In this document: piece by piece, positions 3,001 through 9,000 of the stretch
Position numbering within the stretch: position 1 is the first letter of the stretch
Layout: each line of letters starts with the position of its first letter
From: a virus
Taxonomy: Duplodnaviria; Heunggongvirae; Uroviricota; Caudoviricetes
Length of the DNA stretch: 35,268 nt
Reading direction: 5' to 3' (one strand)
Virus record (IMG/VR): IMGVR_UViG_2778261214_000028
Span: 1-35,268 of that record
Position numbers: made by a program

Positions 3001-6000
3001 AAGTTGAAGGTCTCCATTTGCTGCGGCATCAGCCATTTTTTGCCTGACAAGCAGTAATGTTTCATACGGCTCAATAAGAATATCGTCATGAGTAATTAGG
3101 TGAAGCGTTGCCGCATCAACTATTCCTAGAGCTGCGCCAAGTATCAAAAATTCCCTGCTATTTTTGTCGCATGAGGAGATAAGCGTATTTAGCGCATACC
3201 TAATATTCTTTATAGCTGTTGTTAATGCTGCAATTTCTTCTATGGCGTCTTCTCCAATGAGCTTTTTAAGCTCATATTTTTCTTCCTGACCCATAATTAC
3301 CTCGCCGTCAGTTGTTTTGATTTCCGGTAGCCTGCCGCGTAAATGGCTACGTTTGGCAGGCAAATACTTCCACTGCATTCATCTGCCTTCTTGCAGCGAA
3401 GGCTTCCGAGTGATGCTGCTTTATCTGCTCTGACGCAACCAGAGAGCTTTAGCGCAATTTTTCGTGCCAATCGCTGTTCTTGCATTGCCTGTTCACGTTG
3501 AGCCTGTCTGCGTGCTCTGCGGCGATTTCTGGCGTTATCGTCAGCCAGATATGTAATGACTACTGTCATGTTGACCTCCGATGATTGACTTTGGCGGTGA
3601 CGCGCCGGGTGCTTATCTTCCGGTTGCCGTCGTGCAGCTGCACTTCACGTCACCCCAAAGCCAACTACTCTTTGGTTCCCGCATTTCGGCGGGACAATCC
3701 CATCAATGTTAAAGAGCCTGCCAATCTGTTCCGTTTGGCTTCCAGCGTCCTGCTGATGGCTTAAAGATAACTTAGGTTATAGGTGTGGTCAATAACCTAA
3801 TTTATATTTTATGGTAAATAGGTTATAAGTGATGGATAACAAAGGTATTTTATTTTTGTAAATGTTGCTGATTGATTGGTGTTTGAGGGCTTGCGTGCGG
3901 GGTGAAGGTGTTACCTTTGGCTTGATGCTTGTCTATGATGAGGATGGTTGATTGGGTGGTGAACGGCAGGAAAAGAAAACCCGGCGCTGAGGCCGGGTGT
4001 TTTTAGTCTTTTCTTTTGCTTAGCATTTCGTCGATTTCTAAGTCAATACGATATTGATCTATTGCTTTTCTCTCGTTTGGGGTTGGTATTTTATACTGTT
4101 CAATTAGATCTGTTGTGTATTTTATTTCATCTAATGTGATTTTTATATCAGAGAGAATCTCTTTTATATCAATTATATGCTCTTCTTCTTTTGCACGATT
4201 AGAGCTATGTTCAATCATTTGAGATAGCTTTTTACTAATGCTTAGCAAAACAAAAAGAATGATGACCAAAACAACAACAAAAACTATCAGAAATTCCATT
4301 ATCCCTCCGCACTTCCGTAAGTCTTCTTCTGATTATCGGTTACCAACTATGAGACGACCAGAATACTCTGCCAATAATCCTTACGGTTTCATGAAATTCA
4401 TCTCTATCCATTACTTCATCCGGGTACTCTTCGCGATTTATTGATCTGATTATCACCGATGTAGGGGTGGCGATTAATGTTTTTACTCGTAACAAATCAG
4501 ACTGGCAAATAGCGTAGGTTTTACCATCTCTGATTGTGGTATCTTGCGTGTTAACACCAACAACATCGCCATCGTGAAGCGTTGGTTCCATGCTTTGCCC
4601 TACAACCCTAACTAGCTTGGCTGATCTTTCAGATACTCCCATCTTTTTCAGATAGTGCTTTCTGAAAACCAAAGAGAACTCCGATGATTCCTCTAGCTCG
4701 CAGCTACCGCTTCCAGCTGAAAGCGAAACGTTAAGAAGAGGCAACGCAACAAACTCGTCATCGTTTCTTTTAATGTCTTCCCATACCACAGCTTTTAAAG
4801 ATGAATCACGGACATTGGATGGTTCTTCATGTGCACCATCCCTCATTTCACCAATACCAGAACTAAGCCATTCAGGACGCACTTTTAAAGCATTGGCTAA
4901 TTCAACCATCTTGCGAGATCCGTTTGTTTTACCGGACGACATCTTCTGTATGGCTGGCTGAGATATTCCAACCATGTCAGCAAGCTGTGATTGTGATACC
5001 CCTGCTGAGCTCATGGCTGCATTTAGTCTTTCTGCGAATGTTTTCATACCCACAAATCTATAACTACGGTTATCCAAAGTAAAATAACAAAGGTTATTGC
5101 TATTTTTTATAACTTGAGTTATCTTTGGTTATAAGTAATGACCACAAGAGGTATGCTCATGAATTTAGTAATTCAACGAGCCTTGAAAATTGTCGGTAGC
5201 CAAAAGCGCCTTGCCGACAAGTGTGGTGTAACGCAGCCAGCAGTACACAAATGGCTGAAAGGCGGGTTGGTCTCTCCAGAGAAAGTTACCGCCATCGTTA
5301 ACGCCACTGGAGGGCAGATCAAGGCTTACGAAATTCGCCCCGATTTGCCACACCTGTTTCCAAAACCGAATCAGGCAGCATAAGTAACACCGCTCTTTAA
5401 CAGTCATGGTCCTCATTCCCGCCGAAATGCGGGAATACAACGCGCATAAGTTGATGCGCATAACTTCTTATTTGTTAAGGAAATACTTACATATGGAACT
5501 TACAAGTACTCGCAAGAAAGCGAATGCAATTACAAGCAACATCCTGAATCGAATTGCTGTACGTGGTCAGCGAAAGGTTGCCGACGCGTTAGGGATTAAT
5601 GAATCGCAAATTTCGCGATGGAAAGACAGCTTCATCCCAAAAATGGGAATGCTTCTGGCTGTTCTTGAATGGGGTGTTGAAGACGAGGAGTTGGCGGAAC
5701 TGGCTAAGAAAGTAGCCAGAATGCTGACAAAAGAAAAAGCCCCGAAGAACGGCGAATTCTTCGAGGCCTGATGTAGAAAGACTGGATCAATCCACAGGAG
5801 TAATTATGACATACGAAAATGACAAATTCCAGGTTCTGAAGAGCATGAAGGTGCCAGATGATTTTAAATCAAATGGCTTTGTTTATGTGCTTTCGAATGA
5901 GTGCATGCCAGGAATTTATAAGATTGGGATGACTAAGCATTCACCAGAAGTTAGGGCTAAAGAAATTTCAGCCTCTACTGGCGTTCCTAAGCCATTTAAG

Positions 6001-9000
6001 GTGATAGCAGCCTTTCATTCAAATAATCCCGCATCAGATGAAAAACTCATTCATAAAGCCTTTGCAAAAGAGAGGCTTAGTGATAATCGAGAGTTTTTCA
6101 AGCTTGAAGATAATGAGCTTTCTGAATCTCTAAATGAAATAAGGGCGCTGGTTGGCCCTGAAAGAAATGGCGAGACGGCAGAATACGCAATTTACGACTC
6201 ATTCATTTCTTTTCGCCATGAAAATGAGCTTGATCTTAATGATGAGCTTATAGAGCAAGGTATGGGTAGTGTAGTTGGTCATCTTCCTGCGGTGAAAAAT
6301 TTCCTTATTCGCGCCGGAATTGATTACGCGAAGCAACTGATAAGCAAATATAACTCATCGATAGTTATTAATACAGATGGCAGTGTGGCGATGGTTAAGT
6401 CTCTTGAAGCCCAATGCTTTGATGCGGAGGTTGGAAATGAGCCTGGCTGAAGTATTTTACCTGCCGAAGAGTGAACCTGTTGAACAGGAGCGAAGAGTGG
6501 CTGATATCGATGATGGTTACACCAGATTCGCTAACGAGCTGCTGGAAGCTATCGCAAGTGCCGATTTAACCGCTCGCCAGTTGAAAGTTATGCTGGCCTA
6601 CGTCCGGAAAACATATGGCTTCAATAAGAAAACAGATCGAATAGCCGATGAGCAAATTGCTCAGTTAACAGGACTGTCAAGGCAGAATGTTAACAAGGCT
6701 AAAAAAGAACTGATTTCAATGAATTGCCTGTTTATGGATGGAAATCAAATCGGTGTAAACAGGGAGGTATCTGCGTGGCAATTCAGCAAGTGTCTCCAAG
6801 TTAGCAACTTTGTCTCGAAGTTAGAGACAAAAAATGTCTCCAAATTAGAGACACTCAATGTCTCGAAGTTAGAGACACTCAATGTCTCGAAGTTAGAGAC
6901 ACACAAAAGACATTCTTTAAAGACAAAAGAAAATATTAATAAACCCCCTATATCCCCCAAAAAAGTTTCTCAGAAGTTCGACCCGCTAGAAACAGAGTTG
7001 CCTGATTGGTTATCGGCAGAAACATGGTTGTCGTGGGTTACCTATCGCAAGGAGATAGGTAAGTCGATCAAGTCTAAGCAAAGTGTCACTCAGGCTATCA
7101 ACGTTCTAAGCAGAAGTCTGGAGAAGGGATATACACCTGAAGAAATTATAAACCAGAGCATCGCCAGTGGTTGGCAGGGGATTTTTGAGCCCAAGACTCC
7201 AAAGGGGAAATCTCAACCGAGTCCGCAGCATCGAGCTATGCAGGAAAACTTTGCCACCAAAGATTACGGACAAACTGAAATGCCTTCATGGGCGCAGGAG
7301 TGAACATGACGCTGGATGAAAAGATCTCCCAACTGGAGAAAAAACTTGCAGAATTGAGTTCTCCGCCAATTGCTATCGAGCATACAGCTGTAGAAATTGG
7401 CACTGGCATCTGTGAAAAACATGGTGAGTTTGAGCAGCGTAACCGTTACTCGACTGGGCCAATTAAGTTTGCTTCAAGACCTAGCGAATGCCCGGAATGC
7501 ATGAGAGATGATCTTATTCGGCTACAGGCAGAGAAGATTAAAATCGACGAGGAATCACGTAAGCGCAATGTCGAGTTTCTGTTGAATAATCTTGATATTC
7601 CTGAACGATTCAAGGGTTGCACACTACAGAACTACGAGCCAGTCAACGACGATGCAAAGAGAGTGCTCAGGGTGTGTCAGGCATACGCCAGCAAATGGCC
7701 TGAGAGGTTACAGAAAGGCGGTGGGCTGGTTATGTGTGGAAAGCCTGGTACTGGAAAGAATCATCTTGCACTGGCTATCGCCCGGCACGCAATTACGGAA
7801 CATCAAAGCTCAGCTATTTTCACAACGGCGCTGAAAATTGCCAGAGAATATAAATCAACATGGTCGAAAAACTCCACCCGCACTGAGGATGAAGTGATCC
7901 GACAGTTCACTAAACCTGACCTGCTAATTATCGATGAGGTTGGTGTGCAGTTTGGAAGCGAGGCGGAAAAGATGATCATGTTCGAAATCATCAACACCCG
8001 CTACGAGCGTATGAAGCCAACAATCCTGATTAGCAACCAGAGCAAAGATGAACTGTCTGCATTCATTGGTGAGCGTGTTATTGACAGGATGAATGATGGC
8101 GGCGGATGCACCCTTGCGTTTACATGGGATAGTTACAGGAGCAGATTGTGACTGGAAAAGAAATCATCCTGGAATATCTGAAAACTCATGAACAATTCTC
8201 CCCACATGAATTAGCTCTGATCACCGGAATACCAAATAACAGAATCGCTCAAGCAGCAAGGCATATGGTGAAACAAGGGCATTTGAGTGTTGTTGAGCGC
8301 AAGTGGAAGACGGTTATTTATGCAAAACGCAAAGTGAAGAAGGAGCCAATTAAAAGAAATCCAGATGGTACGGGGTGGGGATGTGCAAATCCAATGACGG
8401 CGTTTATTAATAGGGCGCTTATGGAAGTAAGGCAATGACCATCTACATCACTGAGCTAATAACAGGCCTGCTGGTAATCGCAGGCCTTTTTATTTGGGGG
8501 AGAGGGAATTGGAGGCTTTAAGAAATGAGTACGATAGCTGAGCTTGTCAGGGCTAATTTTCGTGAAGAGTTGGTGCGTTGGTATCGGTATCGTTCATCGT
8601 CCAGTTTGCCGATTGATGAGTTGTATGAGCATTCACCTGCTGCACGACGCTATCCGCGTGACCGTGTTCTTCGACGGTTGTTCAAACTCAACAATGAGTT
8701 TCAGCGCAACAGAATAATCCGGAGTCTGGAATCAAAGTGAAGGAGTGAGTATGAGTCGACGAAGTAGCTTTTTGGGGTTTGTAATATTCCTGTCCTGCAC
8801 TGGTTACATCGTAATCTGGTCAATTTCGAACATTGACCGTGGCGGGGAATATCTCATTGTAATGTTCTTTCCTTTGTTTCTTGGGTGGTACGCCGCAAGG
8901 TTGCTGGAAGAATGGGGTTACAGGCATAAAAAATAAAGGAGTGTTCAGTGAAGCAAACCCTTTTTTATTGGATTAAGAGCGAGGGGTAAGTACCGATGGT

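Follow-up and report, generated by a model that had tools for sequence, protein, structure and literature searches.

Why should a gene for a predicted nuclease stand between cII and the replication initiator gene O of a lambdoid prophage, and what could its product do there? The question is raised by a stretch of 35,268 nucleotides of viral DNA (IMG/VR record IMGVR_UViG_2778261214_000028, referred to here at its full length as the window), in which the gene (positions 5806–6450, plus strand, ATG start) is carried by a P22/lambda-like prophage with an early region of the P22/lambda type. The encoded protein, 214 residues long, consists of an N-terminal domain with the predicted T5orf172-type GIY-YIG fold and an apparently intact catalytic set, and of a C-terminal domain specific to its family. 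The gene is a member of an old, small two-domain family with a fixed slot, and it makes up most of a cassette that is either present or absent in related genomes, with the same sharp boundaries and with flanks that are 97–100% identical. As to its role, our preferred but tentative reading, which we consider quite possible rather than probable, is that the cassette is a competition weapon resembling a free-standing homing endonuclease.

The predicted nuclease domain

By all sequence and fold criteria applied, the N-terminal domain belongs to the T5orf172/GIY-YIG group. Membership was judged by the curated Pfam gathering thresholds, which are exceeded for both T5orf172 (PF10544; 57.9 bits for a cut-off of 20, residues 24–112) and MUG113 (PF13455; 59.2 bits for a cut-off of 22.3, residues 38–111). 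The first-pass annotation of the window, which had recognized T5orf172-like motifs in the N-terminal 80 residues and had proposed a profile search as a check, was right about the family, on profiles and fold matches alike, and wrong about the extent, since the domain spans residues 24–112 (5875–6141, plus strand). The AlphaFold2 model of the protein (predicted local distance difference test score 87, predicted template modelling score 0.71) is that of a soluble, two-domain molecule with no membrane-spanning helix, in which the N-terminal domain adopts the β-β-α-β-α GIY-YIG core. Structure comparison of this domain returned SLX1, I-TevI and UvrC as fold matches, and sequence similarity of the protein to any solved structure was not detectable. 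Compared with the classical GIY-YIG enzymes (I-TevI, the T4 Seg homing endonucleases, UvrC, and SLX1), the protein therefore matches by fold and not by sequence; it has neither the linker and helix-turn-helix DNA-binding domain of I-TevI nor the RING domain and SLX4 partner of SLX1. As an annotation the gene is ordinary and already known, carrying the RefSeq name ‘GIY-YIG nuclease family protein’ (WP_000220587.1); in PHROGs it falls into phrog_8430, of unknown function, and there is no NCBIfam model for the protein.

Homologues of 211–238 residues are found in Escherichia, Klebsiella, Cronobacter, Pantoea, Pectobacterium, and Enterobacter, as well as in metagenomic contigs. In an alignment of 29 of them, reaching down to 33% identity, 35 columns are invariant, including Tyr27, Tyr38, Lys39, Gly41, Thr43, Arg50, Glu53, Glu79, and His83, and further Arg90 and the run Arg95-Glu96-Phe97-Phe98. 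The catalytic set, comprising the tyrosine of GIY (Tyr27), the tyrosine of YIG (Tyr38), the arginine of helix 1 (Arg50), and the glutamate of helix 2 (Glu79), is retained in all 29 sequences. Glu79 aligns with Glu180 of Odn, a nuclease of phage ICP1; the E180A variant of Odn does not cleave DNA in vitro and does not act in vivo (PMC8263062), and the equivalent mutation in the defence protein SNIPE, E414A, abolishes defence (PMC13190303). With an 82%-identical homologue as the reference, the ratio of nonsynonymous to synonymous substitution rates (dN/dS) comes to 0.094 for both halves of the protein alike. Purifying selection is strong on both domains, and this value, together with the 35 invariant columns, shows that the reading frame 5806–6450 did not arise by chance.

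The same residues bear on whether the protein might be a domesticated DNA-binding regulator that no longer cuts. The T5orf172 domain was originally defined as one that binds DNA, and the gene lies in a regulatory region, beside cII, pO/oop and the origin of replication. CapR, a T5orf172-related repressor encoded by a satellite (PMC10448857), provides a precedent. Nevertheless, the family-wide invariance of Tyr27, Tyr38, Arg50, and Glu79 would be unexpected had catalysis been lost, the CapR-type zinc finger (CxxC...CxC) is absent, with a single, non-conserved cysteine in the C-terminal domain, and the whole protein is acidic, with an isoelectric point (pI) of about 5. We regard a regulatory role of this kind as very improbable.

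Another conceivable role is that of a prophage-expressed defence gene protecting the lysogen, in the manner of the PADLOC candidate PDC-S57 or of SNIPE/PD-lambda-1. The nuclease domains are homologous, and PADLOC reports matches to both PDC-S57 (E = 4.5e-29) and PD-Lambda-1 (E = 4.6e-12). These matches are limited to the nuclease domain, residues 21–113 aligning with 3–94 of 212 in PDC-S57 and residues 23–113 with 355–450 of 496 in PD-Lambda-1, and membership in a defence system was rejected on that account. SNIPE is a host defence protein of 490 residues that combines a membrane anchor, DUF4041 and a C-terminal nuclease (PMC13190303), whereas the protein described here is phage-borne, encoded in a lytic operon, shows no DUF4041 in Pfam, and is modelled without a transmembrane segment. 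Moreover, a gene of the pR operon with no promoter-like site between cII and its own start should be silent in a lysogen, and the probability that we would assign to this role is very small.

An optional cassette at the cII–O junction

The gene starts 35 nucleotides from the end of cII (5493–5771, plus strand; 92 residues from the ATG at 5493, Pfam Phage_CII, E = 1.2e-42, PHROG 191) and has its own ribosome-binding site, AGGAG at 5796–5800, with a spacer of 5 nucleotides to the ATG. Its 3' end contains the Shine–Dalgarno (SD) sequence (GGAGG, 6426–6430) and the ATG of O (6426–6439 in all, plus strand), the start of O overlapping its final 14 nucleotides (6437–6450). O itself (6437–7303, plus strand; 288 residues from the ATG at 6437, Pfam Phage_rep_O, E = 4.3e-36, PHROG 678) is followed by the gene of a DnaC-like helicase loader (7288–8151, plus strand; Pfam IstB_IS21, E = 1.9e-18, PHROG 50, E = 1.1e-85). 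The Prokaryotic Genome Annotation Pipeline, applied to strain B1_2 with its identical nuclease gene, places the start of O at the same ATG, in agreement with the coordinates that the first-pass annotation had given for a 214-residue gene with its own AGGAG and a 14-nucleotide overlap with O. A terminator scan found no terminator-like site on the plus strand between cII and O, and the sole promoter-like site on that strand in the region (6087–6114) lies within the nuclease gene; two promoter-like sites were found in total, against 4.3 expected from shuffled sequence. Nothing on the plus strand makes a convincing promoter or terminator of the gene's own. The lack of a plus-strand terminator and of an upstream promoter-like site fits co-transcription of the gene from pR, and its earlier assignment to the rightward early operon, coupled to O, is upheld. 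A search of positions 4000–8500 against Rfam for an RNA element at the junction gave only sub-threshold chance matches, two of them on the iterons of O.

The boundaries of the cassette emerge from alignment with phages N7, mEpX2, and Bas106, all of which share a start block consisting of AGGAG, the 5-nucleotide spacer and ATGACA (5796–5811, plus strand). The alleles are common up to ...CCACAGGAGTAATTATGACA and then diverge at once. A search with the cII segment matched 587 E. coli genomes and, among the matches listed, similarity ends at position 5811, the gene next after cII being called ‘hypothetical’, ‘DUF2740’ or ‘replication protein’. At the right-hand end, cassette-less O alleles become similar again from 6482, 46 nucleotides into O. 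The cassette (5812–6481, plus strand) comprises codons 3–214 of the nuclease gene and furnishes O with a new SD, a new ATG and its first 15 codons; it stands in for about 42 nucleotides at the 5' end of a lambda-type O (MTNTAKILNFGRGNFA...). For its own translation the nuclease gene now uses the ancestral SD and the first two codons (ATGACA) with which O begins in cassette-less phages. The GC (guanine plus cytosine) content of the cassette is about 38–40%, compared with 43–48% in its flanks. The nonamer ATGACAAAT at 5819–5827, 13 nucleotides past the shared ATGACA start, repeats out of frame the opening nine bases of the lambda-type O; its recurrence may be due to chance or may be a relic of how the cassette arose.

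Phage N7, with the same cII and an O of 97% nucleotide identity, lacks the nuclease gene and has the ATG of O at the position of the nuclease-gene ATG. The gene is also absent from the cII–O junction of mEpX1, and in mEpX2 the slot is taken by an unrelated 53-residue gene of the HK97-gp53 type. It is present in Bas106 (PQ850599; 3331–3975 of L001), where its product is 98.6% identical and is annotated as hypothetical. The O allele of the window occurs in 54 E. coli genomes, 19 of which have the window-type sequence at 6451–6481 and 35 of which have no cassette. By count, these 19 equal the 19 genomes with the nuclease gene, and the accessions agree among the matches listed; the breakpoint 6481/6482 is identical in all 19 carriers, and the remaining listed genomes with the adjoining stretch of O are 98.7–100% identical from 6482 on. 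The first-pass annotation, which had called for a comparison of this junction in related phages, regarded the gene as an insertion relative to the lambda layout. The gene is indeed missing between nearly identical flanks (in N7, mEpX1, and the 35 E. coli genomes that share this O allele), which also speaks against a universal core replication factor. An isolated insertion, however, it is not, since the slot after cII is a swap point that holds O, HK97-gp53-like, DUF2740 or other small genes in hundreds of prophages, and since the gene belongs to a family fixed before the initiator. Several of the other occupants (HK97 gp53/mEpX2 gp47 of PHROG 1331, the DUF2740 genes, and hkaW of HK620) have the same SD–ATGACA start and overlap O as well; unlike the nuclease gene, they are unrelated genes of about 53 residues with no nuclease domain.

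The gene is rare, being found in 19 of 5426 complete E. coli genomes and in one of 50,697 phage records of all hosts (Escherichia phage Bas106). Nearly identical cassettes occur in different immunity backgrounds, and no decayed copy was seen. In more distant loci the nuclease protein is better conserved than its neighbours, with identities of 68% for the nuclease protein, 45% for cII, and 39% for O in a metagenomic contig (L040), and of 56%, 41%, and 36%, respectively, in Pantoea (L010); the gene has therefore recombined next to different alleles. As a separate observation, among four Lederbergvirus isolates that were reported together, Bas106 alone has the cassette and alone forms clear plaques; it has no evident lysogeny defect, and its authors suspected a missing attB. 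With one case only, and with the cassette present in 19 E. coli lysogens, the association may be coincidental.

The role of a homing-like competition nuclease is favoured because the catalytic residues are invariant, dN/dS is low in both halves of the protein, the cassette is biallelic and lower in GC content than its flanks, it has recombined next to different alleles, nearly identical copies of it occur in different immunity backgrounds, and comparable T5orf172 genes are known in phages. We infer that, after infection or induction, the pR transcript would carry cII, the nuclease gene, O and the helicase loader gene, and that the N-terminal domain of the translated enzyme would cut DNA with Mg2+ by means of Tyr27, Tyr38, Arg50, and Glu79, with the C-terminal domain providing targeting or control. 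On meeting a cassette-less relative, either by co-infection or as a resident prophage, the enzyme might cut the rival genome at or near its cII–O junction or replication module, where the cassette-bearing allele differs. Such a cut would hamper replication of the rival, and recombinational repair could copy the cassette together with the linked 5' end of O. Presence or absence at one locus, with the sharp boundaries 5811/5812 and 6481/6482, is what homing predicts, and the difference between cassette and empty allele over about 42 nucleotides of the O 5' end is compatible with resistance of the enzyme's own allele.

Free-standing T5orf172 genes of phages adjoin essential genes, including those of the replisome, and mark recombination boundaries, and their products join a conserved nuclease to targeting domains that can be exchanged (PMC10448857). 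The homing endonuclease genes of this type in ICP1, T5-like and other phages (PMC10448857) share PF10544 with the protein described here, and both sets of genes are small, free-standing, wedged between conserved genes beside essential functions such as the replisome, sporadic among close relatives, and made of a conserved nuclease and a variable second domain. The differences are equally clear: the known proteins are mostly basic and 87% of them have DNA-binding zinc-finger repeats of the CapR/DUF723/DUF4397 kinds (PMC10448857), whereas the present one is acidic, has a C-terminal domain with no known fold, and has no zinc finger; in addition, the known genes occupy many sites in lytic phages, whereas this family occupies one fixed slot in temperate lambdoids.

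Several points weigh against homing. The gene has the same position beside at least four unrelated types of initiator, with either cII or a YdaT-type gene upstream, and a constant position across such different initiators would mean that a sequence-specific homing site had been re-targeted many times. Sharp boundaries and a fixed slot are to be expected of any lambdoid accessory gene; lambdoid genomes undergo recombination at gene borders, so that the polymorphism does not speak specifically for homing. Tails resembling the tip of SSB (single-stranded DNA-binding protein) in a sister subfamily point to docking at the replication or repair machinery instead, and the cutting of DNA, the choice of target, and mobility are all predictions. 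Membership in the class of homing endonucleases is not established, the polymorphism being the one hallmark of that class found here.

If the homing or excluding activity is real, the cassette would be a driver of the familiar cII/O mosaicism, and temperate coliphages would gain their first described T5orf172 homing system. The exchange of replication modules, the rivalry of related phages in one cell, and the shift of lambda from theta to rolling-circle replication are incompletely understood, and here a predicted nuclease, coupled in translation to the initiator, occupies the junction that is the most recombinogenic in the early operon. The role is directly testable, since the cultured BASEL phage Bas106 has a 98.6%-identical copy and natural cassette-less phages share the O allele.

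Position before the initiator and the C-terminal domain

All family loci examined share one gene order, namely repressor, cro, cII or a YdaT-type gene, nuclease gene, initiator, and a loader of the P or DnaC type. These loci come from Pectobacterium (L008), Pantoea (L010), and Enterobacter (L012), from metagenomic contigs (L014 and L039–L041), from Enterobacterales sp., Pantoea, Enterobacter, Mixta, and Dryocola (L017–L023), and from Salmonella phage S107 and Proteus phage Brookers. The initiators downstream are of at least four types, namely Phage_rep_O, HTH_36/DnaD_N, and two with no Pfam match. In Pseudomonas phage PP9W2 and Burkholderia phage KL4, this slot is filled by T5orf172 genes whose C-termini are not homologous; the records describe PP9W2 gp075 (L043, 3498–4088) and KL4 gp09 (L006, 3507–3905) as ‘putative helicase (DnaK)’ or ‘putative helicase’, labels that look like annotation errors. 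More distant T5orf172 matches in Rhizobium, Photobacterium and metagenome-assembled genomes (L024–L036) stand in unrelated contexts and were not counted in the syntenic family. A different context also surrounds a 319-residue protein with an N-terminal T5orf172 domain in Vibrio phage K303 (L007, 3495–4454), of which there are about 70 near-identical records and which shows weak, below-threshold Pfam matches to P-loop NTPases of the CbiA/ParA type. The fixed position may reflect a functional tie to initiation, or ordinary recombination at gene borders with the kept gene order of lambdoids.

The C-terminal domain (residues 113–214; 6142–6447, plus strand) has no match in Pfam, among the sequences of the Protein Data Bank or by fold. 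Its profile, run against 1.84 billion representative proteins, gave 16 matches, two of which (a laminin and an acyl-carrier protein) are spurious. All eight full-length matches scanned with Pfam have T5orf172 followed by this domain, which was not found outside that architecture among the representatives. By profile comparison, the C-termini of two further proteins, orf64 of Salmonella phage S107 (probability 74%) and gp48 of Proteus phage Brookers (96%), are remote homologues. All across the family the domain is acidic (pI 4.3–5.9; pI 4.5 and net charge −8 in the window), and no DNA-binding signature is recognizable in it. For comparison, the homing-type proteins gp5 and gp53 of ICP1 have a pI of 8.2 and 8.8, whereas that of the DNA-specific Odn is 5.9; given the example of Odn, an acidic domain argues only weakly against DNA targeting, and acidity was not accepted as proof.

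In many members, the proteins of the sister subfamily (B) terminate in tails such as DDSDIPF, DDTDIPF, DFDDAPF, DFDDNPF, EESIPF, and DEPIPF, most of the other members ending in Phe or Tyr. The C-termini concerned, those of P0030, P0034, P0038, P0039, P0053, and the nuclease-family open reading frame (ORF) 2968–3675 of L021 and L022, closely resemble the C-terminal tip of E. coli SSB (DFDDDIPF/DDDIPF), on which at least 17 replication and repair proteins dock. The subfamily of the window has no SSB-like tail and ends in ...GNEPG.

These features bring in the main rival explanation, and a serious one, in which the nuclease is coupled to replication. Made together with the initiator, it would be brought to forks or replication intermediates by contacts of the C-terminal domain, with the host SSB interactome, the helicase or its loader, or the initiator, and would cut branched or single-stranded DNA there, either halting forks of the host or of a competitor so that replisome parts become available, or nicking a theta intermediate to start rolling-circle replication. 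The location directly upstream of the initiator, often overlapping it, in every family locus and with P- and DnaC-type loaders alike, agrees with such a role, as does the occupation of the same slot in PP9W2 and KL4 by T5orf172 genes with unrelated C-termini. An acidic domain with no DNA-binding signature would suit a protein-binding module, and both the nearness of the subfamily B tails to DDDIPF and the SLX1-like fold matches point the same way. Yet the SLX1 match may reflect just the common GIY-YIG core, the kept gene order is the null expectation for lambdoid phages, and the window subfamily itself lacks the tail. The gene is, furthermore, dispensable, being missing from phages and prophages with 96–100% identical O and loader, and the C-terminal domain remains 50–65% identical where the adjacent O falls to 35–39%, with no co-variation with the initiator. 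We know of no precedent for a nuclease factor of this kind in lambdoid replication. On balance we consider coupling to replication possible but rather unlikely.

A bolder version extends this to the whole family as hitherto unrecognized replication-fork nucleases of temperate phages, coordinated with the initiator, docked on the host SSB interactome or replisome through the acidic C-terminal domain and, in the sister subfamily, through an SSB-tip mimic (...DDSDIPF), and cutting forks or theta forms; we think it distinctly improbable. Were it true, the phage could be switched to rolling-circle replication, or could capture the replisome by collapsing forks of the host or of a rival, and the optional cassette would provide a second way of taking a step that lambda accomplishes by other means. 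Action at forks would make the family a new class of phage replication accessory.

The origin of the C-terminal domain bears on a further explanation, that of a conflict nuclease without homing, acting as Odn or T4 EndoII do and, in the course of lytic growth, destroying the DNA of a satellite, plasmid, competing prophage or host, or removing the DNA component of a host defence. The nuclease is intact and under selection, it would be expressed early, its sporadic presence is typical of arms-race genes, and T5orf172 precedents exist in Odn, which cuts a satellite origin (PMC8263062), and in SNIPE, which cuts incoming phage DNA (PMC13190303). Odn (ICP1 gp88, 226 residues, pI 5.9; PMC8263062) is, like the present protein, two-domain, of similar size and mildly acidic, with the catalytic glutamate aligned, and both are functionally tied to origins or initiators. 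The targeting domain of Odn, however, is an N-terminal copy of the origin-binding domain of satellite RepA, whereas the second domain is C-terminal here and unlike O: hhalign gave a probability of 1% and no similarity, and derivation of the domain from O in an Odn-like chimera was rejected. An apparent in-frame fusion of the C-terminal domain with O (P0033) is an artefact of assembly or sequencing, cI, the nuclease gene and O all being broken by frameshift indels on its metagenomic contig (L042). With no chimeric targeting domain, no resemblance to O or, among the 1.84 billion representatives, to proteins outside its own architecture, and the invariable position before the initiator left unexplained, a conflict nuclease of this sort appears improbable.

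The two-domain family, with a C-terminal domain that has no fold match and a fixed slot before the initiator in temperate phages, appears to be undescribed, and literature searches on the gene, PDC-S57, and Bas106 turned up no functional study.

Antisense, origin and other features of the early region

Upstream of cII, the early region of the window contains a cI-like repressor gene (4340–5077, minus strand) and a Cro/YdaS-like gene (5138–5383). A terminator hairpin on the minus strand, with a 14-bp stem and a T run, overlaps the 3' end of cII (5737–5769); it was found by the terminator scan, is identical in N7, and from the layout of lambda we take it to be a terminator of the oop type. CATAAT, the complement of 5806–5811 and thus of the ATTATG at the start of the nuclease gene, has a TG upstream and resembles the extended −10 element of a leftward pO-type promoter, for which the cassette replaces the lambda-type −35 element TTGAGT of N7 with TGGAAT. 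Antisense control of cII may thus differ between cassette-plus and cassette-minus phages. A second promoter-like site on the minus strand (TCAACA-18-TAAAAT, 6454–6483) lies in the cassette-borne 5' end of O and reads into the nuclease gene, where a terminator-like hairpin (6142–6159, minus strand) follows about 300 nucleotides downstream. This pair could specify a relocated oop-like antisense RNA, but such sites are no more frequent here than in shuffled sequence.

Within O, a repeat search (families D1/D2) identified five iterons at a spacing of 24 nucleotides (TGTCTCNAANTTAGAGACA; 6788–6930), which encode a repeated VSKLET peptide and which, by analogy with lambda, presumably form the origin of replication. 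Directly downstream of the cI-like repressor gene is a 98-residue ORF (4003–4299, minus strand) of 29% GC with a hydrophobic N-terminal segment. It matches PHROG 18389, of unknown function, its position is that of rexAB in lambda, and it is a candidate for a moron expressed in the lysogen.

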